A stretch of 64,000 nt of DNA. Origin: a virus (taxonomy: Duplodnaviria; Heunggongvirae; Uroviricota; Caudoviricetes). The stretch lies in IMG/VR virus record IMGVR_UViG_3300040781_000350; one strand, 5' to 3'. Position 1 is the stretch's first letter. Each line of letters starts with the position of its first letter. The notes below the pieces were generated by a model. It worked only from the letters and a program-made list of their open reading frames with translations. It made no database searches and was not told where the DNA came from. This document shows, in pieces, positions 7,369 through 24,574 of this stretch. The translations under genes and the position numbers were made by a program.

Positions 7369-7665
7369 TCATACATGTCTATCCCAGAATATTCCACCTA
7401 ACCATAGAAAGATGCATGAACGAGCTGTTTTTCTAATACGGAATTGATTTCTCGATACACGCTCGGTTGAACTTGGCGGGAATTTATCGCGAGTTATTTC
7501 AAAATTATTCCAAAATATCAGCGGAAGAATTTCCATCCCCGCTTCGATATTACCTTTACTGGTATAGAAATTAGCAACTGCAGTATTGCGGTTCTTCCAA
7601 CCATAAAACTCGAACAATTCAATCTCGATAAATCTACCAGACTTCGTTGTAATATTCCACTTCAT
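7369..7665 (-). CDS. hypothetical protein (up to 98 aa)
   Basis: ORF in an operon with the upstream gene. The C-terminal extent is uncertain. Confidence 0.35.
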   Translation of the reverse strand: MKWNITTKSGRFIEIELFEFYGWKNRNTAVANFYTSKGNIEAGMEILPLIFWNNFEITRDKFPPSSTERVSRNQFRIRKTARSCIFLWLGGIFWDRHV

Positions 7666-9659: not shown

Positions 9660-9866
9660 CTAGATCGTTTCAATTTCCTGTACGACTTGTTGCTGAACCT
9701 TCTTGATTAGATCTTGTTTATCATTTGTGGTATTAATTTGTAGTTGCAAGTAAAAATGATCTTGTTTACGGTGATCTACCGTAAACTTATCTTCCATCAA
9801 AGCATTCACATTTTTGACATGCACAAACCCTGTCTCTGAGATAGTTCTCCAATCAAATTTTCTCAT
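9660..9866 (-). CDS. hypothetical small protein (68 aa)
   Basis: Starts MRKFDW with ATGA overlap to the thyA stop. The longer 91-aa version in the ORF track would overlap thyA by 73 nt. Confidence 0.4.
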   Translation of the reverse strand: MRKFDWRTISETGFVHVKNVNALMEDKFTVDHRKQDHFYLQLQINTTNDKQDLIKKVQQQVVQEIETI

Positions 9867-10762: not shown

Positions 10763-11210
10763 GTACGGTATTTTCCATAATCTGCTTTAGCTGACTATCG
10801 ATATTGAACCGTTTGCTGTTGATATCCAAACTGGTGCGGATATTACCGTTTTTATTTCGTTGCGTAGCTGCTTTCCAGTCTGCAAGCATCTCGAGCAAAT
10901 CGAGGAGTGTCATGTCATTAACACCATTCTCCCAGTGTTCAGGGTGGTGCCGGTTCTTTGCATAGTGGTTGTCAATAGCAGGTTGTACCTGCTTGAGAAG
11001 CTCATCATACTCAGGAGAACCATATTCTGTCTTAGCTAGTTCAGGAGTCTTTTCAGCAAAGATTGCTAGCTCCGGATCAACAAACTTACTATCATCATGC
11101 TTTTGACCACGATCAATCAGATCATGTACAAACAAATTCAGATTCATTTGTACTTGACGGACATGTTTATGCGTCTCGTTCAGACAGTTTAATGTTTTAT
11201 TATTGCTCAT
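10743..11210 (-). CDS. hypothetical protein, possible HD-domain phosphohydrolase
   Basis: 155 aa. H..H…HD…D spacing (HKHVRQV…FVHDLIDRGQKHDDSKF) resembles the HD metal-binding motif. Confidence 0.35.
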   Translation of the reverse strand: MSNNKTLNCLNETHKHVRQVQMNLNLFVHDLIDRGQKHDDSKFVDPELAIFAEKTPELAKTEYGSPEYDELLKQVQPAIDNHYAKNRHHPEHWENGVNDMTLLDLLEMLADWKAATQRNKNGNIRTSLDINSKRFNIDSQLKQIMENTVREHFKD

Positions 11211-11216
11211 ATTGTT

Positions 11217-11396
11217 TCATTCCTTCCGGTTTTGTATCCGACGACGGATAGCAGCTTCAATTCCGTCTTGTTCATCTGTTAACATTGCTTTAGCGTTATG
11301 TAAGATACTTTCAATATCATTTTCATCAAACCATTCTCTATCAACATCTAACCAACCAAGAATGTATTCTGCAATTTCAAATTTAGTAAATTTCAT
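11217..11396 (-). CDS. hypothetical small protein (59 aa, not in ORF track)
   Basis: Hand-translated as MKFTKFEIAEYILGWLDVDREWFDENDIESILHNAKAMLTDEQDGIEAAIRRRIQNRKE. ATGA overlap with the upstream gene. Confidence 0.3.
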   Translation of the reverse strand: MKFTKFEIAEYILGWLDVDREWFDENDIESILHNAKAMLTDEQDGIEAAIRRRIQNRKE

Positions 11397-11671
11397 TTTG
11401 TCTTACGATACATATCTGGATGATCCTTTTTATATTGTTCGAATTCCTCCTTTGTCATGTTCCATGGATCTGTTGGATCAGGAGCAAGATGATCAAGAAT
11501 TTCTTCCGGGGAGTCACCGATCATGTAATACGGAATTGTACGATCACAAAGATTGTCTTCCTTACCTCCTTCGTCTTCTTGTTTGAGTCGAGCTCGAGCA
11601 TGACGGCGAAGCATCTTTTTATCGTTCATGTCATCCCGCTCAATAAGAGATCCGCGCTTGAATTTATCCAT
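11393..11671 (-). CDS. hypothetical protein (92 aa)
   Basis: ORF in the packed series. Confidence 0.4.
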   Translation of the reverse strand: MDKFKRGSLIERDDMNDKKMLRRHARARLKQEDEGGKEDNLCDRTIPYYMIGDSPEEILDHLAPDPTDPWNMTKEEFEQYKKDHPDMYRKTK

Positions 11672-11691
11672 ACTGTATTATAGAAGTGTTC

Positions 11692-12807
11692 CTACAGATC
11701 TTCACGCCCAATGTCAACCATAACCGGAAAACGTGGAATACCATCTGGTGTAAGGTTCTGATATCGAATTGTAGCAAGCTTACCAATGTATTTGTCTTTG
11801 TTAACAAGCAGCTCGGTAAACAATTCATCATTACCACGACCACTAGCTCCAAATTCTTTACCATCTTTTGTTTGACAAATCAACCGACCCATCATACCTG
11901 CACGTCGCCCATTACCTGGTGTGATATCAAGCACTAAAAATTCATCATCATCGAATGCTTTATACTTCTGCAAATGTTTTGTACGTGTGAAAATATACGG
12001 CTCGCTCGGATTCTTCAACATGATACCTTCATACCCATCCTCGATATAACTTGCATGAGCTTCTTCAATTGTTTCAATTGTCGGCTCGTACATAATATTC
12101 TCAACAATCTTAATCATTGAATCAATACCTGCAACTTCCATATGAAGAAACTCTTGACGTTCAATTGTGGTCATATCAGGTCGATCTGAATCAAACATAT
12201 CGAATACATGAAACTGTAACTTGCTTGCTGCTTCAGCTAAGTCAGCTGATGTAGGTTTCTTTTTACGTGTTAAACTGATTATTTTGTTGAAATCAGTATT
12301 GTATTCATGATTATAAATTTCACCATCAAGACGTACTGTTGGAAACTTCTCAAAGAAGCTTCCGAGCGCATCAAACAAATGACCAAGTGTGAAGTATGGT
12401 TTATTATTACGACTTACTGCTTCATTTTTGTCAATGATACACCGTAACCCGTCCAGCTTTGGGGAGATAAATACATGCTTCTCAAGATGCTTAGGTTGAT
12501 ATTTCTGTGCTAGGGTAGGACTAAAGTTTGTCTGTGTATCATCTGGCACATCATCAACATTTTCAACATACCCTTTATTTACATGGTCATCCCACTGCTT
12601 TTGTGCGCGTTCCATCGCAACTGTTTGAGGAGTCTTTTCGTTTGCTTTACCAAAGTTATTTCCTTTAGCATAGGTCGGTGTACTCGTTGTCGTTTTTCCA
12701 CCTACCTGACCATACTCGGTCCAGAAATGATCATCTTCCCAGAACATTGTCCAGTGCTGAATACTTCCGTTTTTATTGCGTTTAAATAGCGTTGGTAAAT
12801 TTTGCAT
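11692..12807 (-). CDS. ATP-dependent DNA ligase
   Basis: Adenylation motif I KLDGLR (SPKLDGLRCII). Size and motif order match small phage ATP-dependent ligases. Start set at MQNLPTLF (12807) because a promoter element (12816-12833) lies directly upstream. The ORF track extends it 12 codons further. Confidence 0.8.
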   Translation of the reverse strand: MQNLPTLFKRNKNGSIQHWTMFWEDDHFWTEYGQVGGKTTTSTPTYAKGNNFGKANEKTPQTVAMERAQKQWDDHVNKGYVENVDDVPDDTQTNFSPTLAQKYQPKHLEKHVFISPKLDGLRCIIDKNEAVSRNNKPYFTLGHLFDALGSFFEKFPTVRLDGEIYNHEYNTDFNKIISLTRKKKPTSADLAEAASKLQFHVFDMFDSDRPDMTTIERQEFLHMEVAGIDSMIKIVENIMYEPTIETIEEAHASYIEDGYEGIMLKNPSEPYIFTRTKHLQKYKAFDDDEFLVLDITPGNGRRAGMMGRLICQTKDGKEFGASGRGNDELFTELLVNKDKYIGKLATIRYQNLTPDGIPRFPVMVDIGREDL

Positions 12808-12815
12808 AATGATAT

Positions 12816-12833
12816 ATATTGTATTACAGTTCC
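12816..12833 (-). promoter_or_regulatory. conserved early-type promoter-like element (variant), DNA ligase
   Basis: Copy of the conserved early-type promoter-like element, reading tatattgtattacagttcc. It ends 8 nt before the ligase ATG and overlaps the stop of the RlmN-like gene. Confidence 0.5.
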
Positions 12834-13768
12834 TTTGGTGCATGGACTTTTTCTAATCCATGACCTTTTGTCTTTTTAATTTTGTCTTTGTTTTTGTTCA
12901 TCCAGTCTTGAACATACCAAAGTTGACCGCATCCACCGCCAATATCATCTTGACCGGCTGGATTGAAAACACGGACGTTGTAACCTGCTTGTAACATCTT
13001 GGATGAAAAATCTTGTGCTAACTTCCGTTGCCGTTCATTTGCTGTGGCAATATTTTCATCGCGTTCACAAATAACTGATATTGTTGACTGCCAGATTGAC
13101 GGATCGAAATGTTTGACTAATCGATCAACATCTTCCTGTGAATCATTTTTATCATGAACACAATAATTAAAGAATGGTTTTCTACCACAAGCTTTATACC
13201 ATTCAACACCGGTTTCAGAAATCTGTTTTAGCGTCATTGTAGGGCTTGGAATTAACTTCTTTCTAGCTTCATCTGTCGATTCATGAACTGAAAACTGTAA
13301 CCCGATGGTTTGGATCCATTTAGAGATTTTATTCAACTCCTCGAAAGCTTTTATTCCGCCGATTGGAGCTGATGTTGAAATCAGAAGTGAAGCTGTAGGA
13401 TACATTGCATAAAGCGTACCGAGTGCTTTTGATAACTCATTAAAATTCAACATTGGTTCACCCATTGACATAAACATGATTTGCAGCTTATCGATATCAT
13501 TCGGATTACAATCGATCTCATTTTCCAACAAGTGTATTGATTGTGATGCAATCTCTTCACCTGTGAACGATCTTACGAAGTAGTCACCGGCGCCACAAAA
13601 CCGACACCCTACCGGACAACCAGATTGTGTAGAACAACAGATAACTGTTCGATCTTTGTATGTCGGATACTTATACAATACCGATTCTGCAACACCATTG
13701 TCCTGAGTGTAAACATACTTGTTTACATTTTCATCACTAGATGTTATTTTTTTAATATTATCCCACAT
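12824..13768 (-). CDS. RlmN/Cfr-family radical SAM RNA methyltransferase-like protein
   Basis: 314 aa. CCSTQSGCPVGCRFCGAG matches the RlmN signature S-Q-x-G-C-x3-C-x-F-C (radical SAM CX3CX2C). LQFSVHESTDEARKKLIP resembles RlmN ALSLHAPNDELR. C-terminal GGGCGQL matches the RlmN catalytic-Cys motif ACGQL. It lacks the N-terminal accessory domain of bacterial RlmN. Confidence 0.75.
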   Translation of the reverse strand: MWDNIKKITSSDENVNKYVYTQDNGVAESVLYKYPTYKDRTVICCSTQSGCPVGCRFCGAGDYFVRSFTGEEIASQSIHLLENEIDCNPNDIDKLQIMFMSMGEPMLNFNELSKALGTLYAMYPTASLLISTSAPIGGIKAFEELNKISKWIQTIGLQFSVHESTDEARKKLIPSPTMTLKQISETGVEWYKACGRKPFFNYCVHDKNDSQEDVDRLVKHFDPSIWQSTISVICERDENIATANERQRKLAQDFSSKMLQAGYNVRVFNPAGQDDIGGGCGQLWYVQDWMNKNKDKIKKTKGHGLEKVHAPKEL

Positions 13769-13780
13769 ACCGGTATTATA

Positions 13781-14365
13781 TTACAGTTCCAAAATCTTTT
13801 TCGATGTCGGTACCCAATCAGGATCAGTTTTCAACTTCATTGAGACTTTACGAAACAAATCAGCTGTTGAACCTTGCATTGTTGTTGGTACCGTATCTTG
13901 AACGGTCGAAAGACCAAAACTCTCAATCACACTAATGTAAGGTTTCTGTTCACCTTTCCAGTTCGTTGTAACACCAGCAACTCGTACTGCTGGAAATTCA
14001 CGGCCTATCCAATCATTACGAATATGTGGCTGAACAACAATTGCTGTTCGCATGTATAGTGAGCTGCCGCATCGACCAGGGTAGGATATAATTTGTCCTC
14101 GTTCAATCGGTTTACTGTATAAATCTGTAATATTATTAATAATTGCTTTTTTTGTTAAAAATTCTACTGCTTCTTCCATTGTTAGAACCTTTGCATTTTT
14201 ACCTTTTGGTCTTTGCATTGATTCAATTTTTTCTTGTTCGTTATTATAAAGACATCCTGAGCAAGTCCAACCCCCGAACATGCCGGGAGGGCATGAACCT
14301 CTTCCCTTCGAACATTTTTCAATGTTACCCTCCCGGCAGATACCACCTTGGTGTAAATAAACCAT
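13781..14365 (-). CDS. hypothetical protein with N-terminal Cys-rich (zinc-ribbon-like) region
   Basis: 194 aa, with C-x5-C…C-x…C-x2-C at the N-terminus. Confidence 0.5.
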   Translation of the reverse strand: MVYLHQGGICREGNIEKCSKGRGSCPPGMFGGWTCSGCLYNNEQEKIESMQRPKGKNAKVLTMEEAVEFLTKKAIINNITDLYSKPIERGQIISYPGRCGSSLYMRTAIVVQPHIRNDWIGREFPAVRVAGVTTNWKGEQKPYISVIESFGLSTVQDTVPTTMQGSTADLFRKVSMKLKTDPDWVPTSKKILEL

Positions 14366-14671
14366 TTACATAAACCAAGTTATAACCCAACCAAAAAGCA
14401 ATGCAAAAGCAGGCTTTAATACAGCAACCACAATACTAAAAATTATCTTTTCTTCTGACGTACGAGTATCTTCCGGTTCGTTACCGGAATAACCTTTAGT
14501 TAGATAATTTATAATTATCGCAATTCCGACTGCTACCGGGATTGTTAATGATGCAATACCAAATGTAGAAACGATAAACCATTCCCATAAGATGGTTAAT
14601 GCGTATCCGCTCCAGATTATACCGAGCGGTGTAATTAGTAATGCAATTACTGCTAGTGCTATTGTTTTCAT
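14366..14671 (-). CDS. small membrane protein (101 aa)
   Basis: Two or three hydrophobic helices. Confidence 0.5.
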   Translation of the reverse strand: MKTIALAVIALLITPLGIIWSGYALTILWEWFIVSTFGIASLTIPVAVGIAIIINYLTKGYSGNEPEDTRTSEEKIIFSIVVAVLKPAFALLFGWVITWFM

Positions 14672-14680
14672 ATTTTTGTT

Positions 14681-15412
14681 TTATTGCTTTGTAGTGGGCA
14701 TTAACCACATGTTATTGTTTGAGAAAACTTGCTCCTTGATCATGCTGTAGTATTCAAGCCGTGACAAGGTCAACATAGTATCAGCCTTGAAACACTTGAA
14801 CAATTCCTCACGGATACGCTCTTGTGAAACGTTCTTTAGACCACTTACGAACTCCATGTAGATCATGCAGCGATGAATATCCTGATGTAGGTTGAATCCC
14901 TTGGTGATTGAAAACCTGAAGTAGCGTAACATACGAAGGTAATCTTCCTTGATTCGATCTTCAGCATTTCCAACTGCACGGATAAGCTTCATATTAAGGT
15001 CATCCACCCCATGAAAAGGATCGATAATAGTACCATCAGCAAGATCAATAGCAATTGCATTTACAGTTGCGTCACGACGAGCAAGGTCATCTTCGATACA
15101 ATCAGCAATGTGGGTTACATCAGGCCGACGACCATCACTGTATTCACCATCCTTACGAGCAAGAGCAACATCAACTGCACCGAGTCCAGGAATGTTGCAT
15201 CGTAGAGTCAAAAACCCTTCAGTTGCAAGAAAGACCTCACCACCGATATCTTCAACAGCCTTCACCATGTCAGCAAAGGTAGGAGCTACCATACACAAAT
15301 CCAAGTCCTTAGGCTTGCTATTTGCGTCGATCAACTTATCACGTACCCACCCACCAACGATGTACGTTGGGAAGGGTAGCTTAATGTTAGGAATGTCTAA
15401 TACTGCTTGCAT
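14681..15412 (-). CDS. cca: tRNA nucleotidyltransferase (CCA-adding enzyme) / poly(A) polymerase family, head domain
   Basis: 243 aa. Signature GGxVRD (IVGGWVRDKLI) with DLDL catalytic carboxylates shortly after, then an RRD motif (DDLARRDATVNAIA). Confidence 0.8.
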   Translation of the reverse strand: MQAVLDIPNIKLPFPTYIVGGWVRDKLIDANSKPKDLDLCMVAPTFADMVKAVEDIGGEVFLATEGFLTLRCNIPGLGAVDVALARKDGEYSDGRRPDVTHIADCIEDDLARRDATVNAIAIDLADGTIIDPFHGVDDLNMKLIRAVGNAEDRIKEDYLRMLRYFRFSITKGFNLHQDIHRCMIYMEFVSGLKNVSQERIREELFKCFKADTMLTLSRLEYYSMIKEQVFSNNNMWLMPTTKQ

Positions 15413-15433
15413 ATGGTAATTATATGATTGTTC

Positions 15434-15805
15434 CTATCCGAAATACGGTTCGCTTTTTTTACTGAAAGGGTGCATTGCATCCCAATGTTTTTTATATGCT
15501 TCAGGATCTTTTTTCTTCATACGTTCTACTTCTTCAGCATATCGCTTCAACGGACGATTTGCAATCTCATTGAATTCATCCTGTGTAATGTTATTGAGAT
15601 TGATTTCAATATTTCGTAACTCAGGGCATCCAGTCTGCTCACCGCCAAACCGACGCTGTTCAGCACCTTCAGGGCTGAGATCGATCCCGTATTTGCAGTC
15701 ACATGTTGAAGGTTCTTTTTCGAACATCATACCGTCATAACTACATTTCGTGCGGCGAAGCAGATGGATGTATTTTCTGAGTGTTTCTATGTCTGTTGTA
15801 AACAT
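15434..15805 (-). CDS. hypothetical protein (124 aa)
   Basis: Start moved to MFTTDIE (15805). The upstream residues in the ORF track are the in-frame translation of the promoter element. Confidence 0.45.
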   Translation of the reverse strand: MFTTDIETLRKYIHLLRRTKCSYDGMMFEKEPSTCDCKYGIDLSPEGAEQRRFGGEQTGCPELRNIEINLNNITQDEFNEIANRPLKRYAEEVERMKKKDPEAYKKHWDAMHPFSKKSEPYFG

Positions 15806-15809
15806 AATA

Positions 15810-16493
15810 TTATAGCGGATTCTGAGTATCCTTACCGTGATGATCTGGAGCACTTCCATTTTGCTTATCCATGAACTTTCTCAGATCAGCAAAGTTGATC
15901 GGGTAATCATTCTCTTCAACGCTAACTTCGTAGCACTTCATCTTGGAATTCTTGTAAAGACGTCCGAGTTCAGACTTAACGAGAGTTCCATGAACATGAC
16001 TGTAAAGCATGTAAGACCCTCCGCCTTGACCATTCCAACTCAACACTGGGTAATGACTCAAGCACACAGCTTGACCATTGACAAATGCTTCGAAGTAGTT
16101 TGGAGTAAACACAACTTGCTTACCCCCGAGATCGAGAACATTTTCATCAACACCGCTAAAGCTTTGATGCCAACCCGCATAGTGATTACCAGCAGGTAGG
16201 TAAAGAGTCTTGAAGCTCAATCGGTTCAGCAATTCTTCGAATGCTTCCTTCCCACCTGCGCCGAACATAGTATCACCAAGTAGGAAACCAACAGTATTCT
16301 CATTAGCTACTTCGTTCCAACGTTGGATCAAAGTCTCTCTATGATCAAGAACGGAATCAAATCCGCGCATCTTCCATAGCGGTACCTTCCACTTTGGATC
16401 ATGATTAGCATGCAAGCATCCCCAGAACAGAACTTCCTTAGGATCTGCCTTAACCTTAACTGGCTTGTAAAATAAATCTTTTAAATTCGACAT
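15810..16493 (-). CDS. calcineurin-like metallophosphoesterase (putative)
   Basis: 227 aa. GCLHANHD, GDTMFG and AGNHYAG resemble phosphoesterase motifs I-III. Start set at MSNLKDL (16493), directly after a promoter element at 16497-16515. Confidence 0.5.
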   Translation of the reverse strand: MSNLKDLFYKPVKVKADPKEVLFWGCLHANHDPKWKVPLWKMRGFDSVLDHRETLIQRWNEVANENTVGFLLGDTMFGAGGKEAFEELLNRLSFKTLYLPAGNHYAGWHQSFSGVDENVLDLGGKQVVFTPNYFEAFVNGQAVCLSHYPVLSWNGQGGGSYMLYSHVHGTLVKSELGRLYKNSKMKCYEVSVEENDYPINFADLRKFMDKQNGSAPDHHGKDTQNPL

Positions 16494-16500
16494 ATGCGTA

Positions 16501-16941
16501 TTATAAATGTGTTCCTGTTGCAAGTTGAACATAAAATGGTACAAGAGCAATAAGCGTTACTGCGTGAATAAGCTGATCGATTCCAATTGTATTCCAAAAT
16601 GCTTTATATTGATCACGTTGCCAGAATCGAGCTGTAAGTCTACTTGTACACCAATCTGTTGCAAAATGTGTTACAAAAATATAAAAATATATTAACATAT
16701 GAAACGAAAATGATCCCCAAAATCCCATATTAGGCAGCTCTGTTACAAAGCAAAGCGGCATCAAGATAAAAAGAAAAATCATCATGAATACAGTCCCTGT
16801 ATAAATCGTAACGTGATCTAACATAACCCTGTTATCTGAGATTTTTTGTGTACCTATTTTTCTACTCTGAAGTAGAAAATCTCCGATATAATGCCCACTA
16901 AGTAAGACAGCTATAAAATAAATTGTAATATATTCAATCAT
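16501..16941 (-). CDS. small membrane protein
   Basis: Hydrophobic 147-160 aa protein. Start tentatively at MIEYITIY (16941), which has the GGAG Shine-Dalgarno-like sequence (GGAGAAGATT) 7 nt upstream. Alternative starts up to 16983. Confidence 0.4.
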   Translation of the reverse strand: MIEYITIYFIAVLLSGHYIGDFLLQSRKIGTQKISDNRVMLDHVTIYTGTVFMMIFLFILMPLCFVTELPNMGFWGSFSFHMLIYFYIFVTHFATDWCTSRLTARFWQRDQYKAFWNTIGIDQLIHAVTLIALVPFYVQLATGTHL

Positions 16942-17069
16942 AATCTTCTCCAATTCCAACTGTTCGATGTGCATATCTCTCACCGCAAGAATATTCAGCG
17001 AGCTCTGAACTGCATAGAGATAATGTTCCGTCCTTCACTCTCTGAAAAAACAGATCGATCTCTAATTCC

Positions 17070-17906
17070 TCAATCATGGTCTTCGAGATCGATGTAAATT
17101 TTGTCGTTGAACCATGACCAATCTTGTTTAAAGACTGGCGTCTCGTTATCAATGTACCATTTTGTTCTGACAGGTACCTCACCGATTTTAATATCTGGAT
17201 GCATATCAGGAAATGCTACTGTTTCAAATTTCTTATAACAAGACGAACCATGCTGTTTGGTAACTGGTAGTTCATACCAATCAGCGTCATCATCTTCATT
17301 TGACATTAACATCTCTTTAAGCTTAGCTGTATTCTTACCTTGTAACTCTTTATGTGAGTAATAAGCTCGAGCTTGCATCTGAACACTGTTTTTTGCAGCA
17401 TCTTGCATTCTCCACCACAAGCAGTTTAAAACTTCATAACGTTGTGATAGTGGAAACACACGAGCATCGAATTGAGCTTGTTTCATTACCATTGCATCAG
17501 CTACAGCAGTTTCATCTAACTGATTACCATAATCAGGTGTTATAGCACGAACCATTCGCAACTGATTAAACTTACTTGTTGCAAGACTTGCAGCAACACT
17601 TGTGATCTTTTGGATGTTTCCGCCAAACCAGATATCAGCTTCACGGCTCATCAGGTCAGTAAACACGATTGTGATATCATCTGATTGTGTATAACCAAAC
17701 TGCGCACCCTGGATATTCTCACAAAGAAACTTCATCGTCTCTTGCATATCTTCGATCATACCTTCATCGAATGGTCGATCCAACCCTTTTGTATAGGTAT
17801 GAAATGCTTTACCATCGATGCGTAGCACGTAATATTGTTTTGGTGAAAGATATGTACGAGTGATATTCTCGTAACCTTTCATGCGATCTCCTAATTCATC
17901 ACTCAT
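17070..17906 (-). CDS. tRNA-His guanylyltransferase (Thg1)-like 3'-5' nucleotide polymerase
   Basis: 278 aa. YYVLRIDGKAFH matches the Thg1 motif RIDGRxFH. GYTQSDDITIVF matches the Thg1 catalytic motif GQSDEYSF. Confidence 0.75.
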   Translation of the reverse strand: MSDELGDRMKGYENITRTYLSPKQYYVLRIDGKAFHTYTKGLDRPFDEGMIEDMQETMKFLCENIQGAQFGYTQSDDITIVFTDLMSREADIWFGGNIQKITSVAASLATSKFNQLRMVRAITPDYGNQLDETAVADAMVMKQAQFDARVFPLSQRYEVLNCLWWRMQDAAKNSVQMQARAYYSHKELQGKNTAKLKEMLMSNEDDDADWYELPVTKQHGSSCYKKFETVAFPDMHPDIKIGEVPVRTKWYIDNETPVFKQDWSWFNDKIYIDLEDHD

Positions 17907-17912
17907 GTTGTT

Positions 17913-17932
17913 ATAATATCGTTGTTCCTATT
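17913..17932 (-). promoter_or_regulatory. conserved early-type promoter-like element (variant), Thg1-like gene
   Basis: Copy of the conserved early-type promoter-like element, reading ttataatatcgttgttcc, 6 nt from the ATG. Confidence 0.5.
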
Positions 17933-18069
17933 TTACCAACAAAACCATCCGCCGCATTTATTACATTTAACACCACCACGTGGTTGTGCTTGGATATCAT
18001 GATCACATTCTGTATCAGCATCCCAAAGTTCATCTAATTCTGAGACGTTTTCTTTTATTTCATCACCCA

Positions 18070-18486
18070 TTACAGCTTAATGTTATTGAGGATCTTCTCC
18101 TTTTGCTTTGCAACTACCTCAGCAGGTACCCCATGTACGTTTTCACTCCCATGCAAGTTCTGAACAACATAGCTCACAACTACATAACCATGCTTTTCAG
18201 CAAGTTCGATATACGGCTTACGTTCTTTACCTGTTGTATTGGTGTTGTCAACAATGATACATGCAGTTCTTTTCAACATATTCAGCTCGACCTGATCTTT
18301 GCACCAAGCATGAGCTTGGCCGAGTTTACTCGGATCGAAATCATAACCATCACCCCAGAATAAATCAGCACTACATATTTCACAATCTGGGTGCAAAGTT
18401 TCGATGAACTTGCTAAAGGTAGACTTACCGCTGCCTGACGCTCCGACAGGCAGGATAAGTACTTTGTTTTGAATTAATGGATTCAT
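18070..18486 (-). CDS. P-loop polynucleotide kinase-like protein (kinase domain only)
   Basis: 138 aa. Walker A GASGSGKST at the N-terminus, as in the T4 Pnk kinase domain. Context of RNA ligases and phosphoesterases. Confidence 0.6.
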   Translation of the reverse strand: MNPLIQNKVLILPVGASGSGKSTFSKFIETLHPDCEICSADLFWGDGYDFDPSKLGQAHAWCKDQVELNMLKRTACIIVDNTNTTGKERKPYIELAEKHGYVVVSYVVQNLHGSENVHGVPAEVVAKQKEKILNNIKL

Positions 18487-18509
18487 ATAGCTATTATGTT
18501 AATGTTCCT

Positions 18510-18710
18510 TTACTTGCTTACTCGCTCACGAATTTCTGCAAGAGAATGCTCGATCAAAAGCTCCATAAGGTCATCAGAACTTTGAATCCTAGCTTCAATA
18601 ACCTCTGTTGGCTCGTTATGGTAAATTGCTCCGGCAGCAACATGTACCTCACCACCACTGAATACATGGCGATTGAAATTAATATGCTTGTTTTTTTCTA
18701 GTTTAATCAT
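18510..18710 (-). CDS. hypothetical protein (66 aa)
   Basis: ORF in an operon. Confidence 0.4.
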   Translation of the reverse strand: MIKLEKNKHINFNRHVFSGGEVHVAAGAIYHNEPTEVIEARIQSSDDLMELLIEHSLAEIRERVSK

Positions 18711-18721
18711 AATTGTTTTGT

Positions 18722-18928
18722 CTATTTAAATTGTGTATCCATGTTGATATTAAACGAACGGAAAACATAGTATAGTGATCCGATGTAAAATATCACCCAA
18801 GTACTCCATGTTGCAAAAACGAAACTATTCCAAGGTAGTTCATATATCACACCTGTAGACCACAGGGTAGCAAAAAACATCAATATGGAAATGAATTTAT
18901 GTTTATGTTTTAAAAATCGTCGTATCAT
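18722..18928 (-). CDS. small membrane protein (68 aa)
   Basis: Two hydrophobic helices. Promoter element at 18934-18952. Confidence 0.4.
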   Translation of the reverse strand: MIRRFLKHKHKFISILMFFATLWSTGVIYELPWNSFVFATWSTWVIFYIGSLYYVFRSFNINMDTQFK

Positions 18929-18932
18929 ATGT

Positions 18933-19715
18933 TTATATTACTGTTGTTCCTTTTTTACATCTACCTTTGAACCACCCGTTTGGTATTTCAGTTTTGGTTA
19001 AATCAACTTGTTTCATTGTTACACCATTGGTAATCCAATTTGTTCCTTTCTTCGCTTCACTCATTCTTTTTCTTGTACTAGTCTTTTTTGCAATACCTTT
19101 CTGTTTTATGCTTATTTTACGTTTAACATCATCAGGACGCTGTTTACCATAATGACCATTATTCGCGCCTTTATTTTTACCTTTCATGCTTTGTGAGATT
19201 TTTCTACAATGATCTTTAGAAAATTTCTTGCCTTTGTTAGTACCGGTTCGACCAATATTTGTTTCACTTATTCTTTTTTTATGTCTTTCAGTCATTCCTC
19301 TCACCCAACCTTCAGGTATATTTTTCAGTTTACACCATTTTTCATTATTACCATCGTTTATTAATACTAAACCATCACGTGCATGTTTCATACTTTCTCG
19401 CCATCGAACCCTGTAATACTCAAACATTCTTGATGATGTAATACGACCTACACCGTTAATACCAGTTTTAAAAAAAGATAAAGCGGATAGAGCTCTTAAC
19501 ATTTTATAATACTCAACAGAGCCTTTTATTTGCATTTTTACTAGTAGTAAATGCGCAATAAAATGTTCTCTCGGAGATAATAAAACTATATTACTATGTT
19601 TATTATCTCCACCAATACTTTTTGGTATAATATGATGTCTTTCAGCATGGCATGATGTTGATGGATCTGATTTGCGTTTTTTGACAAGTGATTTGTAAAC
19701 AGTATGATAATTCAT
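18933..19715 (-). mobile_element. HNH homing endonuclease with C-terminal NUMOD3-like DNA-binding repeats
   Basis: 260 aa. HNH motif HHIIPKSIGGDNKHSNIVLLSPREHFIAH. Four C-terminal repeats of the pattern [KR]xISxxxKG (RHKKRISETNIG, HCRKISQSMKGK, VKRKISIKQKG, TRKRMSEAKKG). Inserted between the kinase and the RNA ligase genes. Confidence 0.85.
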
Positions 19716-19729
19716 ACTATTATTTATAT

Positions 19730-20740
19730 TCAGCTTTCGGTATACTGGTAATTGATCGTTTTGAAGCTTAGATCTTTGTTAAGTCGTTCACTATAAAGAT
19801 GATTGCGAAGTCTCCATACAAGCCCTTCAGCAGTTGCACCATTAGCATACTTCACTTTCTTCGCTTCTTCGACAAGATCATCAGCTGTTTCCCATTTGAA
19901 TGGACCTTCATAGTAAAGATCAACCATAGGAATACCAAGCGTAGTGCAGATTTGAACTGATTCATTCCAGTCGCAAAGAATACGACGATCAAGCTTCCAA
20001 ACATTGAACACCCGGGCGTCAACACCTTTAAGCTTTTCTGGATTCTTTTGAATACCTTCACCTACAAGCTCCAACTGGAGACCAATACCCACAGGTAGCT
20101 TCTCTTTAAGGTTGTACTTGAATACAGGTTGCCAATATTTGCTGTTTCCTGATTCTTTGATTTCGAGATTACGAGAGCAAACTTTGAAACCGTCTTCGGC
20201 ATGATTAACGATAGTTACAGAACTACCATCATGCTTAACAGTTGCAACAACATCTCGCCCTTTCATCATTTCGATAATATCAGGCATATTCTCAAGACGT
20301 TCTTCATCGGTCTTTGGTACAAGATGTGTCGGAAACGACCCAGCTACGTCACCACTTTCATACGATACAGGTTTTTCGTATTTCTCAACACCGAGATATT
20401 CACCCACATCAGTATCAATCAAATCATTCGGGTCGACATCATAATAGCTTGCTGGGAGATATTTCATAAGCTCACCAAGAGGCATAATTAGTCCATTGCT
20501 GTATTCACCACGAAGCTTGATAATATTAATCCTGAACTTCTTATTTTCTAGGAAGCTGAATTCTGGTTTATCTTTCGGCGCAATAGTATCGACCGGGATA
20601 TAAACGACGAGATCATCCACTTTGAAATCAACTGCGCTAATTACACGCCAGCTGAGACCATACATCTTAAAGATGGTGAGTGAATCTGCATTTGGATGCT
20701 CAATAACATCCGAGATTTTTTGTATTGTTGCTAGTTTCAT
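19730..20740 (-). CDS. RNA ligase (nucleotidyltransferase motif KHDGSS) with N-terminal OB/tRNA-binding-like domain
   Basis: 336 aa. N-terminal IEHPNADSL resembles the tRNA-binding OB domain (HPDADKL). Motif I KHDGSS sits mid-protein, an architecture like DraRnl/NgrRnl (Rnl5-type). Confidence 0.6.
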   Translation of the reverse strand: MKLATIQKISDVIEHPNADSLTIFKMYGLSWRVISAVDFKVDDLVVYIPVDTIAPKDKPEFSFLENKKFRINIIKLRGEYSNGLIMPLGELMKYLPASYYDVDPNDLIDTDVGEYLGVEKYEKPVSYESGDVAGSFPTHLVPKTDEERLENMPDIIEMMKGRDVVATVKHDGSSVTIVNHAEDGFKVCSRNLEIKESGNSKYWQPVFKYNLKEKLPVGIGLQLELVGEGIQKNPEKLKGVDARVFNVWKLDRRILCDWNESVQICTTLGIPMVDLYYEGPFKWETADDLVEEAKKVKYANGATAEGLVWRLRNHLYSERLNKDLSFKTINYQYTES

Positions 20741-20749
20741 ATTATATTT

Positions 20750-21091
20750 TTATTTTTGTTTCTTGTAGTTAACAAAGTCTCTACGTAAAACATTTCCAGT
20801 TTTTTGAAAATTTCTGATGAACATTAAGTTGTAGTTTTTTAGACTCTTCTGTTTATCGTAATACCCGAATACCTTTGCATTAAATTTTACAACATCACCT
20901 GAACGGAATTTAAAGCCAGCAGGTGCAGTGATCCAAACATGATCTGCAACATCAATATCTTTATGTATCACGTCTTTAATCAAAAGATAATGACCACCGA
21001 TCTTGCGTGGATTAATTGTTTGTATAGTTGCAGTTACTTCGATCAATTGACCTTTGAACTGCTCCATTGCTTCTCTGAATTTACTTTTCAT
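20750..21091 (-). CDS. hypothetical protein (113 aa)
   Basis: ORF overlapping the Rnl1 stop by 11 nt. Confidence 0.45.
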   Translation of the reverse strand: MKSKFREAMEQFKGQLIEVTATIQTINPRKIGGHYLLIKDVIHKDIDVADHVWITAPAGFKFRSGDVVKFNAKVFGYYDKQKSLKNYNLMFIRNFQKTGNVLRRDFVNYKKQK

Positions 21092-22178
21092 CCAATACTG
21101 ATTTGATTATTTTTTTGATTGTTTGGTTTGGTATTTCCATTCCTTTACGTTTCTTAAATGCAACATCTTTCCATGGATTTCTGTACGTCATTTGCATTAA
21201 GAACGCAAAATCCTTATCCGAAAGATTTTTGTGCATTTGTGCATATTCATCGATTTTGTTGATTGAAACATCAACAGATTTTTTAACTTCATCTAGATTT
21301 TGAACAAGTTCCTCAACCATGCACCAGCATTCATAATCAAATGTGTTTTTGATATATTTTTTAAATGCTTTGAATGATGGAAAATCCTGATCAGCATAAA
21401 GATTAAGAATATTCTTTTCAGTTGCATTTGATTTAAACGAATGTAACTTGAGATACTCTGCTGATTTTACTTTCCATAAATCATTACCTTGGTATATGAC
21501 ACAACCTTCAATACCAGATGCTTTTTCGATCGTAGATAGAAGTTCGCTCAGGTCATTGAACTCATATTTCTTCGGACGTGGCACAAGCATCTCCATTGCA
21601 AATGAATCAAGCATTACCTGAGATTCTAGCTCGTATGTATTCTTGTTAATTGCTCCGATCAGATACAAATCGATTTCGGGGTAGTCCAAAACAATCCGCT
21701 GATTAGGTGTTACAATTTCGAAAAGTAATGATAAATGAGTATGGTTCTGCATCCAAGGACGGATGTTATAGTACTTGTCAAGAGCAACATCGAAATCAGC
21801 GCTATTGTCTAAAGTAACGTAGCTTTCAGTACCTCTGGTACGAACGTTGAACATGTTCTCACATGCATCGACAATCATTAACGAGCCATCCTCTTTAGAT
21901 ACAATTCTCGAATCTAACAGATCAGTTGGAGGCGGAAAGTTACCAGGGTTTTCACCAAAATTAACGAACTTAGGAAAGCCGCAGCTTAAGGGCTGAAAAT
22001 CTGACTTACGGTAAATAAGTGAGCGTAAAAATTTATTTTCCTGCGTCCATTCGACACTAGGCAGACCTGGAGTAATTAAACATGCCTCATCGCCAAAGAA
22101 TGTAATATCTCTTTGTATAAATTCCTCGATTGGTACACTTTTGAGTGCAGCCTCTACGCGTTTTTGTGCTAAGTTCAT
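21081..22178 (-). CDS. rnlA: RNA ligase 1 (T4 RnlA-like)
   Basis: 365 aa against 374 aa for T4 Rnl1. KFVNFGENP vs T4 KFFNLNENP. Motif I IVSKEDGSLM vs T4 ILTKEDGSLV. LLFEIVTPNQRIVLDY vs T4 ANFEFVAPTNRIVLAY. IEGCVIYQGNDLWKVKSAEYLKLHSFKS vs T4 [29 protein letters not shown]. Confidence 0.9.
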   Translation of the reverse strand: MNLAQKRVEAALKSVPIEEFIQRDITFFGDEACLITPGLPSVEWTQENKFLRSLIYRKSDFQPLSCGFPKFVNFGENPGNFPPPTDLLDSRIVSKEDGSLMIVDACENMFNVRTRGTESYVTLDNSADFDVALDKYYNIRPWMQNHTHLSLLFEIVTPNQRIVLDYPEIDLYLIGAINKNTYELESQVMLDSFAMEMLVPRPKKYEFNDLSELLSTIEKASGIEGCVIYQGNDLWKVKSAEYLKLHSFKSNATEKNILNLYADQDFPSFKAFKKYIKNTFDYECWCMVEELVQNLDEVKKSVDVSINKIDEYAQMHKNLSDKDFAFLMQMTYRNPWKDVAFKKRKGMEIPNQTIKKIIKSVLDEK

Positions 22179-22468
22179 ACTAACTCCAAGCTATAATTTG
22201 CTCCCCGTTTATTGAATTTGAACACCCCTTTAACAACCCCGTTAACCATATGCGGTACAACCTTTTCAAACTCTGCTAATCTGAATGTGTATACAGTTCC
22301 ACGAACACCAACATGTTTAAATTTGAAGTTACATGCTGATCGACCTCGATTTGCTCCCACAAATTCAAGCTCAGCTGGAAAGGGTCCAGGAATCTCAAGC
22401 ATTTCATACCCGCCATAACTTTCATAGGTTAAGTATTCGTTTTTTTCTTTGTTGTATGGTACTTTCAT
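22175..22468 (-). CDS. hypothetical protein (97 aa)
   Basis: ATGA overlap with the rnlA start. Confidence 0.45.
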   Translation of the reverse strand: MKVPYNKEKNEYLTYESYGGYEMLEIPGPFPAELEFVGANRGRSACNFKFKHVGVRGTVYTFRLAEFEKVVPHMVNGVVKGVFKFNKRGANYSLELV

Positions 22469-22469
22469 A

Positions 22470-22802
22470 TTATTTTTTTCTAATTGGAATTAATGGTACT
22501 GGTGATGCTTTACAATCACATGAGAAATCTTTTGTTTTGTCAAATTCTTTTTTACAAACCGTACATTGCCAAATGTTCCAATGTATTTTGCGTTCGTATT
22601 TTTCTTCTAATAATGCCTCTGATGGCCACTTTGGTGGATCAACTTGACTTTTTGGTGGAATATAACTACCTGTTCGAACAGGTTCATTATGACAATCGCA
22701 TGGACATTTATGATTTTTACGAATCTTTACAAATATCCACAAAGCTATCGGCAATAAAGCAACAGCAATTGGACTACAACTTGAACATGCTAAAACGATC
22801 AT
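22470..22802 (-). CDS. hypothetical Cys-rich (zinc-finger-like) membrane-anchored protein
   Basis: 110 aa with an N-terminal hydrophobic segment and CxC / CxxC clusters. Confidence 0.45.
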   Translation of the reverse strand: MIVLACSSCSPIAVALLPIALWIFVKIRKNHKCPCDCHNEPVRTGSYIPPKSQVDPPKWPSEALLEEKYERKIHWNIWQCTVCKKEFDKTKDFSCDCKASPVPLIPIRKK

Positions 22803-23011
22803 ACTTCTTTAAATTCAATTTCAAATGTTGCAAGGCTATATTTTTCACCCGGTAAATTGCGACGAATGTTTACTAAATCATATTCAGCTTCCTCTTTATC
22901 TGATTTGAGATGTTTAAGCGGAACGGTTGGTGAAAAATATCCTCCCATTCGATGCGAGCAATAGTAAAACCCATCACAATCACGTTTGATGCAATACTGT
23001 TTAATAATCAT
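22799..23011 (-). CDS. hypothetical protein (70 aa)
   Basis: Promoter element at 23016-23034. Confidence 0.4.
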   Translation of the reverse strand: MIIKQYCIKRDCDGFYYCSHRMGGYFSPTVPLKHLKSDKEEAEYDLVNIRRNLPGEKYSLATFEIEFKEV

Positions 23012-23035
23012 ACAGCAATAATAATGATGTTCCTT

Positions 23036-23845
23036 TTATTGGAATTGTGTGTCGTGACTTAAAAAATGTTGTGTAATAACACCATTTTGTATAATTGCAT
23101 AGCTCATTTGCATACAGTCAATACAGTAGTTTTTTAAACCAATCCCATTTTTCTTTTCTCGTTTGATTTTACTGTTAATTGTAGTATGACCAACAACTTG
23201 TCTTACTTCATCAAGGGGCACGAATTCATAATTCCAATCAAGCCAAACAGGGCTCCCAACATCGCTCAGACCCATCCGACATGCACCGACATCCCATATC
23301 CAATGACCAGCTTCAAACATAAAATGATGTTTTGTTTTATCCCAGTCATCACTCAAACGTTGGATATTATCCAGTTCGCTCATGAATGGTTTAAAATGTG
23401 ATGTGTGAAATCCTGCATGTGAAACAACAATATCATCACCGATTTGTGTACAAAGCTTTAGCGATTCAACCCATTTTGGATCGATATCCTTATTAAAAGT
23501 TTTTGCTTTACTTTTTGACCAACCAGAGCAAAAATAGTCTGAATTTGATTTAGTGTTGATATAGTTTTTATTATATGATGCTAAGTATGCAACATCATGA
23601 TTACCAACATGCCAAATAGCGCGATCACCAAATTCTTCAAACCGTTCTCTGATCCATTCACATGTTGCACCAACACCATATATAATTGCTCCGTCTGGTG
23701 TTCTGAATGTATCGAAATAGTCACCGTTAAAGATTACAATCTCCCAATCACGTTCAGCTTCTAATACGAGGTCAGCAAAGCCACCAATGTTTTGGTGTAT
23801 GTCCGGAATTACTAGTACTTTTGTTTCTTTTGATATTTTTCTCAT
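23036..23845 (-). CDS. calcineurin-like metallophosphoesterase
   Basis: 269 aa with clear motifs: VIPDIHQN (DxH), FNGDYFDTF (GDxxD), HVGNHDVAY (GNHD). Last gene of the RNA-repair module. Confidence 0.7.
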   Translation of the reverse strand: MRKISKETKVLVIPDIHQNIGGFADLVLEAERDWEIVIFNGDYFDTFRTPDGAIIYGVGATCEWIRERFEEFGDRAIWHVGNHDVAYLASYNKNYINTKSNSDYFCSGWSKSKAKTFNKDIDPKWVESLKLCTQIGDDIVVSHAGFHTSHFKPFMSELDNIQRLSDDWDKTKHHFMFEAGHWIWDVGACRMGLSDVGSPVWLDWNYEFVPLDEVRQVVGHTTINSKIKREKKNGIGLKNYCIDCMQMSYAIIQNGVITQHFLSHDTQFQ

Positions 23846-23990
23846 TTTCTTTTAATCTCTCAATAAGTTGTTCGTCAATTTCTGCAGTTATTGTTCTCTG
23901 CATATCTTCTCGTGCTTCATCATCATTAAAGACAATACGCAACACTTCAAGACTATTATCTTCCATTCACTTATTATACATTAACAACCA

Positions 23991-24206
23991 CTAATTTCCA
24001 GTAATTTTAATACTATGAAAGCTGTTCATTGATCTAGTAAACCCCTTTTCATCCCGTGCAAGAAACGCAGCAGTAGGGGCATGCCATTCAACAACACCTA
24101 CAAAGATTGGATTCTTATAATCGTTACGCACTTCGCAGGTAATTTTATCACCTGCGCATACTTCTTGACCATTATCAGCAAATATTCCAGTTTGTTTATA
24201 TTTCAT
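23991..24206 (-). CDS. hypothetical protein (71 aa)
   Basis: ORF. Confidence 0.4.
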   Translation of the reverse strand: MKYKQTGIFADNGQEVCAGDKITCEVRNDYKNPIFVGVVEWHAPTAAFLARDEKGFTRSMNSFHSIKITGN

Positions 24207-24574
24207 GATTGGTGCTGAAAGCTATGCAGGTAACATTCTATATTCCTTTTACCTACTGGGTTCATACTATGACACATCCAATCTGATGTTAAATCAATAT
24301 TTTTGTTCATGCAGAATTTTACTAACCACTTTGCACAATCATAACCTGTCTTCTCGAGATCTCCATTCGCATTATCACCTGCAGCATAATGAACATCAGC
24401 TAGATCATGATCGAATGAGATAAAGTCTGGAAGTTCATTATATAAAATGAAGTGATCACTGATAGTTTTTACAAACTCATCATAATTACGGACAATTGTC
24501 CATGTACCAACATCTGGCAATTTCACATGGGTTGTGAATTGCGGGCTTCGTATATCATCTAAAAATAAGTTCAT
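24203..24574 (-). CDS. hypothetical protein (123 aa)
   Basis: ORF with ATGA overlaps on both sides. Confidence 0.45.
   Translation of the reverse strand: MNLFLDDIRSPQFTTHVKLPDVGTWTIVRNYDEFVKTISDHFILYNELPDFISFDHDLADVHYAAGDNANGDLEKTGYDCAKWLVKFCMNKNIDLTSDWMCHSMNPVGKRNIECYLHSFQHQS

Follow-up and report, generated by a model that had tools for sequence, protein, structure and literature searches.

The DNA analysed here is a 64,000-nucleotide stretch (the window) from a tailed virus of the class Caudoviricetes, catalogued as IMG/VR record IMGVR_UViG_3300040781_000350. A block of genes at ~14.7–24.6 kb of the window is most plausibly a gene cluster for the repair of breaks in RNA, chiefly transfer RNA (tRNA), organized around a split core of end-healing and sealing enzymes, and we give this reading a probability of about 0.65. 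It is the best of the readings considered because cassettes of a polynucleotide kinase (Pnk)-like enzyme, a metallophosphoesterase and a T4-type RNA ligase 1 (Rnl1) recur in other phages, and because the closest relatives keep the additional enzymes of the block linked to one another.

An initial annotation, made from the sequence alone, had read an expanded tRNA repair system into eight open reading frames (ORFs) between 12824 and 23845. All eight are present, all on the minus strand, and profile and structure searches upheld every one of the eight enzyme identities; neither the ligases nor the Thg1-like or CCA-adding candidates fell into unrelated families. Its healing-and-sealing reading is likewise backed by the linkage of kinase, phosphoesterase and Rnl1 genes in other phages. 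The annotation had missed a further gene at 24203-24574 and the lack of body and tail domains in the CCA enzyme, and the membership of one of its eight genes, the RlmN-like gene described in the last section, is not supported. The genes assigned to the cluster are as follows.

24203..24574, minus strand: cyclic-phosphate-processing receiver-like (cREC) protein, 123 residues (PF20274, E 1.5e-20; PHROG 1479, E 3e-27)
23036..23845, minus strand: MPP269, a metallophosphoesterase of 269 residues in the PPP/ApaH/lambda-phosphatase/Pnkp branch
21081..22178, minus strand: divergent T4-type RNA ligase 1 (Rnl1), 365 residues, recognized by PHROG 562 and the T4 Rnl1 structure
19730..20740, minus strand: Rnl5-type (NgrRnl/DraRnl) RNA ligase, 336 residues, with an N-terminal OB domain and a C-terminal nucleotidyltransferase domain
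18070..18486, minus strand: stand-alone Pnk-like P-loop kinase, 138 residues (AAA_33)
17070..17906, minus strand: bacterial-type Thg1-like protein (TLP), a 3'-5' nucleotidyltransferase of 278 residues (PF04446, BtTLP)
15810..16493, minus strand: PE227, an aq_1665-type metallophosphoesterase of 227 residues, recognized by PHROG 547 and by a family profile that matches 1xm7
14681..15412, minus strand: class II tRNA nucleotidyltransferase of the CCA-adding type, 243 residues, head and neck only (PF01743)

The interval 12824-23845 lies inside a long run of minus-strand genes that are closely packed, with intergenic gaps of -74 to +86 nucleotides. RNA-end-processing families account for nine of the 23 ORFs in 12824-24574, whereas the 87 ORFs that were scanned in other parts of the window include none (Fisher p = 1.8e-7, an optimistic value since the block was picked post hoc). 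No RNA-repair family is found among the Pfam families of the 82 other ORFs in the window.

Sealing, healing and end-rebuilding enzymes

Family memberships and conserved catalytic residues are direct observations, and they are clearest for the ligases. The ORF annotated as Rnl1 matches PHROG 562, the T4 gp63/Rnl1 family, over residues 44-362 of 365 with an expectation value (E) of 8e-37, and it matches the T4 Rnl1 crystal structure (2c5u) at E 1e-8 in a pairwise alignment that ends at residue 254. The tRNA specificity of T4-type Rnl1 comes from an all-helical domain at the C-terminus. When T4 RnlA was searched against the window with tblastn, this site was the only match (E 4e-9). The equivalog profile TIGR02308 is reached at E 2e-12 with 46.8 bits, under its curated cut-off of 242, and neither PF09511 nor any other Pfam family is matched at E 0.01; many homologues do carry PF09511. 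Residues that are invariant in 31 homologues (R52, K70, K95-x-D97-G98, E154, E224-G225 and K236/K238) align with T4 R54, K75, K99, G102, E159, E227-G228 and K240/K242, which we take, from the mutational literature, to be essential residues. By these sequence criteria the protein appears to represent a genuine, divergent subfamily of T4-type Rnl1 and not an equivalog. By analogy with T4, it is predicted to be the enzyme that seals breaks in single-stranded loops.

The second ligase, described in the initial annotation as carrying an OB domain, is of the Rnl5 type. Its matches to PF21189 (PHA02142 OB; E 8e-14, 52.3 bits) and PF09414 (RNA_ligase; E 2e-18, 67.9 bits) both exceed their cut-offs, and Naegleria NgrRnl (5cot) is matched at E 2.5e-31 over both domains, with the KxDG motif aligned. 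The architecture of an OB domain plus a nucleotidyltransferase domain, together with the aligned KxDG, is thus shared with the Rnl5 ligases of Naegleria gruberi (NgrRnl) and Deinococcus radiodurans (DraRnl). The window enzyme differs from these in falling slightly under the equivalog cut-off of the DRB0094 family profile TIGR02306 (E 1.3e-38; 132.7 bits against 151.15). It is a candidate sealer of nicks in duplex RNA.

The stand-alone kinase belongs to AAA_33 (PF13671, E 2.7e-10) and matches tRNA_lig_kinase at E 1e-3. PHROG 2071 (E 7e-36) and PHROG 505 are matched too. The bacter_Pnkp profile is matched at E 5e-9 over its N-terminal 107 positions only, with 34.8 bits against a cut-off of 750. 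The best match in the PDB is the kinase domain of Clostridium thermocellum Pnkp (4gp7, E 4e-5). The GASGSGKST sequence (K21, S22) and D41 of the kinase align with the P-loop and catalytic Asp of this enzyme, the latter being D38 in C. thermocellum Pnkp (PMC3902929), and the Asp is kept across the alignment of the family. Pairwise similarity to T4 PseT is confined to the P-loop. The adjacency to Rnl1 in many phages makes the protein a candidate 5'-OH kinase that would serve the ligases and the Thg1-like enzyme.

The two phosphoesterases, both read as calcineurin-type in the initial annotation, belong to different metallophosphoesterase branches. MPP269 matches PF00149 (Metallophos) at E 1e-10, above the cut-off. 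An alignment of 53 homologues shows conservation of D15, H17, G41-D42, G81-N82-H83-D84, H143 and G219-H220, and the protein thus holds the five motifs DxH, GD, GNH(D/E), H and GH that provide metal ligands. Single-sequence searches of the PDB returned nothing significant for either phosphoesterase, and a six-sequence profile of MPP269 gave marginal matches only, so that structure prediction was needed. The AlphaFold model of MPP269 (predicted local distance difference test, pLDDT, 95) falls in the PPP/ApaH/lambda-phosphatase branch. MPP269 is a candidate enzyme for healing 2',3'-phosphate or cyclic-phosphate ends.

PE227 belongs to the branch typified by Aquifex aq_1665. Its ORF is open to a TTG at 16550, and homologues of 221-231 residues favour the ATG at 16493 as the start. 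No Pfam family is matched; the PHROG 547 'phosphoesterase' profile is matched at E 7e-31, and a profile built from the PE227 family matches the aq_1665 metallophosphoesterase (1xm7) at E 3e-10. An AlphaFold2 model (pLDDT 92) has 1xm7 as its sole significant Foldseek match. Invariant residues are H28, D74 of the GD motif, N103-H104 of the GNH motif, H147 and H166-x-H168. At motif I, C26 (in WGC[LM]H) replaces the first metal-ligand Asp in 117 of the 120 closest homologues; more distant members of the family retain SDxH at this position. Of the two phosphoesterases, PE227 shows the most consistent linkage to Rnl1 and the kinase, and it is the leading candidate for healing the 3' end.

A third potential healer is encoded by the cREC gene, which lies a short way upstream of MPP269 and outside 12824-23845. 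The family was defined, and tied to RNA ligase operons, in PMC7824862, and in one related locus (L081) a cREC homologue and Rnl1 are 3.8 kb apart. The protein is probably an extra component for healing 2',3'-cyclic-phosphate ends.

A phosphatase of the HAD type, as found in T4, appears to have no counterpart. T4 PseT searched against the window with tblastn matches the P-loop only, and jackhmmer with the T4 HAD domain gave no matches in 85 related loci. The tblastn search, together with a Pfam scan of the other ORFs, rules out a hidden T4-type HAD phosphatase elsewhere in the window. Given this absence from the window and the related loci, another phosphatase is needed if Rnl1 is to repair cyclic-phosphate ends.

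Two further enzymes are of types that rebuild tRNA ends. A single small ORF separates the TLP gene from the kinase gene upstream of it, and the TLP matches PF04446 at E 3.7e-27 (95.3 bits against a cut-off of 29.2) and PHROG 4717 at E 1e-78. In structure searches it matches BtTLP (4kgk) at E 1.4e-48 and an archaeal TLP (5axk) at E 6e-6, with no eukaryal Thg1 structure under E 1e-3. D31 and D76 align with the BtTLP metal ligands D30 and D75, and Asp77 stands in place of the third carboxylate, Glu76; the ligands of BtTLP, including a Glu as third carboxylate, are described in PMC3701042, as is the repair of 5'-truncated tRNA by enzymes of this type. The window TLP also shares a nearby Pnk-type kinase with bacterial members of the family: Anantharaman et al. 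2010 (PMC2904730) found a Pnk-type kinase to be the most persistent neighbourhood association of bacterial Thg1 homologues, with RNA ligase also represented, predicted that Thg1 acts in repair together with Pnk and RNA ligase, and pointed out that phages carry copies. In contrast to BtTLP and these bacterial neighbourhoods, the window protein is encoded by a phage, and has Asp for Glu, Arg for Lys43 and two insertions.

The CCA-adding enzyme matches the head domain of PF01743 (PolyA_pol) at E 4e-24, with 85.8 bits against a cut-off of 23, and it matches PHROG 2244 and PHROG 24229, the latter a phage family of similar extent (245 residues). Profile NF009814 is matched at E 1e-37 over positions 21-209 of 396 (129.8 bits against a cut-off of 290). 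Alignments to the CCA-adding enzymes 6ibp (E 1.7e-25) and 1miv are confined to residues 13-213; the window protein covers residues 58-247 of the 420-residue 6ibp and ends where the tRNA-binding body of that enzyme starts. The motifs GGxVRD (G20-D25), DxD (D36/D38), RRD, EDxxR (EDYLR) and ER (ERIRE) are all present and align to 6ibp. The possibility that the enzyme is split, with the following ORF supplying the body domain, was ruled out, since that downstream ORF encodes a membrane protein.

Linkage in related and cultured phages

A single-sequence search with Rnl1 gave no related loci, and an alignment query succeeded; 87 loci encoding Rnl1 relatives were gathered, and their ORFs were searched iteratively with the window proteins. 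Linkage was counted in the 83 loci that scored as Rnl1-encoding, one of which (L007) is the source phage itself, and the counts are minima since many loci are short. PE227 lies within 10 kb of Rnl1 in 22 of the 83 loci, the kinase in 18, Rnl5 in 14 and MPP269 in eight, followed by Thg1 and the CCA enzyme with five each and cREC with two. The kinase, Rnl1 and PE227 genes are directly adjacent in several of the related loci.

The wider set of enzymes is found together in the closest relatives. For example, locus L001, at 58% Rnl1 identity, encodes the kinase, MPP269, the CCA enzyme, PE227, Rnl1, Thg1 and Rnl5 in a changed gene order, while L006, at only 33% Rnl1 identity, still holds Rnl1, the kinase, Thg1, PE227 and MPP269. 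Thg1 is tied to Rnl1 in L001-L003 and L006. Thg1, the CCA enzyme, Rnl5 and MPP269 thus stay linked in the closest relatives despite shuffled order, and linkage that is kept through rearrangement and deep divergence argues for a shared function.

The core cassette also occurs in cultured phages. Aeromonas phage phiA009 (L170 3517-5396) and Vibrio phage VnaP (L171 3537-5420) each possess a cassette of a phosphoesterase, an Rnl1-like ligase and an "ATPase". A like cassette is present in the E. coli phi92-like phage vB_vPM_PD114 (L172 3923-5813), where the third gene shares 42% identity with the kinase of the window. The cassette phosphoesterases of phiA009 and PD114 bear metallophosphoesterase profiles. 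Across phage records, homologues of the kinase were found in 617 and of PE227 in 975. In the cultured phages, the cassette genes are usually annotated merely as 'phosphoesterase', 'RNA ligase', 'ATPase' or hypothetical. The phi92-like ligase has KVNG aligned with the KEDG lysine motif of the window enzyme.

Several other features were seen around Rnl1 in the related loci. Transposon genes of the IS605/OrfB type (Cas12f/TnpB-like) lie directly beside Rnl1 in two distantly related loci (L005 2190-4015 and L006 8549-9865), and L005 also has a neighbouring gene of the RNA_ligase family with a weak intein-splicing match. In L051, ARAGORN called a tmRNA at 7490-7928, ~2 kb from Rnl1 and adjoining an Rnl5 homologue. 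In L068, 11 tRNA genes stand between the two phosphoesterase genes.

Predicted mechanism, alternatives and precedents

The core would be encoded by three separate genes, for the kinase, a metallophosphoesterase and Rnl1. In the proposed scheme, the stand-alone Pnk-type kinase would phosphorylate the 5'-OH end of a broken RNA, and a metallophosphoesterase would strip the 2',3'-cyclic or 3'-phosphate, with PE227 as the most consistent partner and MPP269 and cREC as additional or alternative healers. Rnl1 would seal loop breaks, as T4 Pnkp plus Rnl1 do after cleavage of the anticodon loop. To this core, the source phage and its nearest relatives would have added MPP269, cREC, Rnl5, the TLP and the minimal CCA enzyme. 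Rnl5 would seal nicks in base-paired RNA, and the TLP would rebuild lost 5' nucleotides with the 3' strand as template, a reaction for which it would need a 5'-phosphate from the neighbouring kinase; the minimal CCA enzyme would restore the 3' end.

We infer the substrates, the division of labour among the phosphoesterases and cREC, and the counter-defence purpose. The nucleases that the initial annotation had named as targets (colicin E5/D-like, VapC, PARIS and retron effectors) are guesses and amount to speculation.

A number of points weigh against the repair reading. All catalytic roles in the cluster are predicted. In the Pnk enzymes of T4 and C. thermocellum, an Arg stands three residues past the catalytic Asp, and arginines of the lid bind the substrate and the nucleoside triphosphate. 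The window kinase has a Trp where C. thermocellum Pnkp has the Arg after the catalytic Asp, and its lid region holds a conserved His-x-Val-Pro motif in place of Arg. PE227 lacks the canonical first Asp of motif I, and its sole solved relative, 1xm7, is of no known function. In structure comparison, MPP269 comes nearest to a protein-tyrosine phosphatase and to ApaH, with the phosphatase domain of Pnkp ranking behind them, and it resembles ApaH and protein phosphatases as closely as it does Pnkp. The CCA enzyme is without the tRNA-binding body and tail domains. At the level of the locus, over half of the gathered Rnl1 loci have no partner gene in the available flank, many of these flanks being short. 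A scan for promoters and terminators gave the same counts as shuffled sequence, and operon boundaries could not be drawn. Finally, a tRNA scan and an Rfam scan of the whole window gave no matches, so the 64 kb sampled here, of a genome of ~221 kb, hold no tRNA genes.

The alternative that survives best, though we regard it as unlikely, is that the CCA enzyme, the TLP and possibly the RlmN-like protein serve the maturation of phage tRNAs (addition of CCA, of G-1 on tRNA-His, and m2A37, respectively), with the ligases and healers forming a separate matter. Bacterial hosts normally own a CCA enzyme, which counts against such a need. The idea gains from the related loci, 26 of 84 of which have tRNA arrays no more than 10 kb away from Rnl1 (the nearest relative, L001, among them), and from the roughly one third of the phage tRNA genes inspected that have no encoded CCA (among them the tRNA-Leu of L001 and all four inspected in L071). 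It has to contend with the lack of tRNA genes in the window and with the absence of tRNA-His from every Rnl1 locus scanned. Moreover, the TLP is of the bacterial type, whose studied members favour templated 5'-end repair over G-1 addition, and a Thg1 gene by a kinase gene suits the repair of 5'-OH ends better. A like option had been raised for phage Thg1 in PMC2904730. The physical grouping of the cassette with the TLP and a minimal CCA enzyme makes the genomic case for repair by these phage enzymes clearer than it has been before, and it suggests that phage Thg1-like and CCA enzymes act in tRNA-end repair, beyond mere maturation.

A second alternative, which we consider decidedly unlikely, concerns the phosphoesterases: MPP269 and/or PE227, along with cREC, could act on signalling nucleotides, Np4N caps or phosphoproteins (against host cyclic-nucleotide immunity, or in the manner of ApaH or lambda phosphatase), their proximity to the ligases reflecting a shared accessory island. 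The structural neighbours of MPP269 speak for this, as do its homologues in records that bear the names of Verrucomicrobia and other bacteria, and the degradation of nucleotide signals was proposed in PMC7824862 for other phage calcineurin-like enzymes and cRec. Against it, many unrelated phages have PE227 directly beside the kinase and Rnl1, and the linkage of MPP269 to Rnl1 is kept in loci at only 33% Rnl1 identity. In addition, neither the window nor the related loci offer any other candidate for the 3'-phosphatase.

A role in DNA transactions, with the kinase, the phosphoesterases and Rnl5 processing DNA ends or RNA-DNA junctions in replication or repair, is very improbable: T4 Pnkp acts on DNA too, Rnl5 seals nicks that need RNA only in the 3'-OH strand, genes for an ATP-dependent DNA ligase and ThyA follow directly downstream of the block, and a DNA ligase gene follows the cassette in phiA009, but Rnl1, the TLP and the CCA enzyme belong to RNA- or tRNA-specific families, and the kinase and PE227 show conserved linkage to Rnl1 and not to DNA ligase.

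RNA break repair, the reading preferred here, has well-studied precedents. The system of T4 Pnkp (PseT) and Rnl1 (RnlA), which counters the anticodon nuclease PrrC, has a ligase of the family found in the window, where all residues essential to Rnl1 are retained, and it shares the logic of a 5'-kinase, removal of the 3'-phosphate and sealing. In T4, rnlA and pseT are close together in a nucleotide-metabolism region near td, and the window likewise has ThyA nearby. The differences are that the window kinase is a stand-alone protein of 138 residues, that metallophosphoesterases replace the HAD/DxDxT phosphatase, that Rnl1 falls under the RnlA equivalog cut-off, and that Rnl5, the TLP, the CCA enzyme and cREC are added.

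A second precedent is the Pnkp/Hen1 system of bacteria such as Clostridium thermocellum, where the three activities are fused in one protein that has its own ligase domain and a 2'-O-methyltransferase, Hen1, as partner. In the window, by contrast, the genes are separate, the ligase is Rnl1 (plus Rnl5), PE227 is of the other, aq_1665 branch, and no Hen1-like family is found among the Pfam matches. PMC2190708 and PMC3675462 describe the healing of 2',3'-cyclic ends by the metallophosphoesterase of bacterial Pnkp and the same activity in lambda phosphatase. The initial annotation had pointed to the split design with metallophosphoesterases in place of a HAD phosphatase as a departure from T4 Pnk. 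That difference stands. The design is not unusual, though, as it has a bacterial precedent in Pnkp and is common in phages, as the cassettes of cultured phages illustrate.

The concept of phage RNA repair has also been published. Iyer et al. 2021 (PMC7824862, section 3.4.9) described RNA repair in jumbo phages with several ligases per genome (Rnl1 and the Rnl2 family) and a repertoire of polynucleotide kinases, HAD phosphatases, cRec, a CCA-adding enzyme and Thg1, with calcineurin-like phosphatases in 'a small number' of phages; an RlmN-like enzyme is not mentioned. The enzyme identities and the general function that the initial annotation proposed were borne out, whereas its novelty was overstated in view of PMC7824862 and PMC2904730. 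The locus is an unusually complete example of a known concept, which it leaves unchanged. Those repertoires record presence or absence per genome; the window shows physical clustering within ~10 kb and a phosphoesterase partner identified as aq_1665-type with a Cys-substituted metal site. What is new, then, is the clustering of nearly the whole repertoire, the finding that a phosphoesterase of the aq_1665 type regularly accompanies the kinase and Rnl1, and the Cys in the metal site of that enzyme.

A more far-reaching proposal is offered tentatively, and it may well prove wrong. The kinase, the Cys-substituted PE227 and the divergent Rnl1 could constitute a widespread phage tRNA repair cassette that replaces T4 Pnkp, with PE227 representing a new class of RNA 2',3'-cyclic phosphodiesterase that employs a Cys metal ligand, and with the TLP, the CCA enzyme and Rnl5 added in this lineage. 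If so, the phage could reverse lesions in which host tRNases take away nucleotides or cut stems and ends, beyond the reach of T4's two enzymes. Host defences that cleave tRNA are a fast-growing topic, and the phage repair that is understood experimentally is nearly all T4 Pnkp plus Rnl1. The present locus and its relatives provide a testable alternative made up of a separate kinase, a functionally uncharacterised metallophosphoesterase family and a divergent Rnl1. The main value of these findings lies in candidates for biochemistry, among them the cassettes of cultured phages of E. coli, Vibrio and Aeromonas.

The RlmN-like gene, neighbouring genes and the source phage

Genes beside and within the block that do not belong to the predicted repair set are listed below.

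22470..22802, minus strand: small protein of 110 residues with a hydrophobic N-terminal segment and a Cys-rich C-terminus
20750..21091, minus strand: ORF of 113 residues between both ligases, its start overlapping the Rnl1 stop
18933..19715, minus strand: HNH plus NUMOD3 homing endonuclease, 260 residues (Pfam NUMOD3/HNH; PHROG 655, E 6e-36)
16501..16983, minus strand: DUF3307 membrane protein, 160 residues (PF11750, E 7e-9; PHROG 2470 membrane protein)
12824..13768, minus strand: short RlmN/Cfr-like radical-SAM methyltransferase, 314 residues (TIGR00048; Cfr 9p0p)
11692-12843: ATP-dependent DNA ligase, directly downstream of the block
10743-11210, minus strand: DUF5662 protein (E 1e-36), adjoining thymidylate synthase
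9863-10762: ThyA (thymidylate synthase), downstream of the block

The initial annotation had counted the RlmN/Cfr-type enzyme as part of the repair module. Its identity holds: TIGR00048 is matched at E 7.7e-26 (90.9 bits against a cut-off of 290) from profile position 72 of 355, and Cfr (9p0p) at E 2.9e-15 over chain residues 72-342. The protein thus lacks the N-terminal accessory domain of ~70 residues. The C51/C55/C58 cluster is invariant, and C44 and the C-terminal GGGCGQL align to the mechanistic cysteines of Cfr. The gene is common in large viral contigs, with at least 298 loci, the best 80 of which show 52-69% identity. In these best 80 loci, a PE227-like gene occurs in five and Rnl5 in four, while the commonest neighbours are NAMPT (17), NadM-Nudix (16) and Macro (11). 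Module membership was rejected, as the gene is absent from the related Rnl1 loci and its own neighbourhoods hold repair genes rarely and NAD-salvage genes more often; it is treated here as an adjacent auxiliary gene whose membership is unsupported. Genes resembling nucleoside deoxyribosyltransferases are also often near it in viral contigs.

Besides the enzymes, the block contains two membrane proteins and several small ORFs with no family match in Pfam or PHROG. The 110-residue protein is among those with no Pfam or PHROG match; in L004 a homologue immediately precedes Rnl1, and L001 has one close to Rnl1. The 113-residue ORF also has no match in either collection, and no homologue in the related loci. 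The DUF3307 protein, likewise absent from the related loci, is probably a passenger. The HNH/NUMOD3 endonuclease is a mobile insertion and no repair component. Homing endonucleases break the repair cluster at differing sites: in the window one lies between Rnl5 and the kinase, and in the relative L001 a LAGLIDADG endonuclease (11138-12091, minus strand) lies between Rnl1 and Thg1.

The source phage is T4-like. The window encodes a T4-type portal (PF07230, E 4e-97) as well as a gp15-like tail sheath stabiliser. The phage has no close cultured relative: the portal is only ~30% identical to those of cultured phages (T4-like portals of cyanophages and vibriophages), and no match to the 11-kb block came up among 50,697 phage records searched with megablast. 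Two contigs in JGI metagenomes, of 20 kb and of 221,420 bp, encode proteins identical to window proteins. The source phage is therefore a large, uncultured T4-like virus.

Outside 9.8-27 kb, the genes of the window include a variety of families of conflict or metabolism type. A scan that gave per-family counts for the 82 other ORFs yielded YqeY (GatB-like), YAcAr SLOG, a LOG-like 'lysine decarboxylase', phosphoribosyltransferase (PRTase) and R2K ATP-grasp, along with Band_7/SPFH, SprT-like, DUF932, GNAT and a DenV-like pyrimidine-dimer glycosylase. Finally, the sequence of the DUF5662 protein next to thymidylate synthase has an H...HD...HH pattern that recalls the HD-domain phosphohydrolases.

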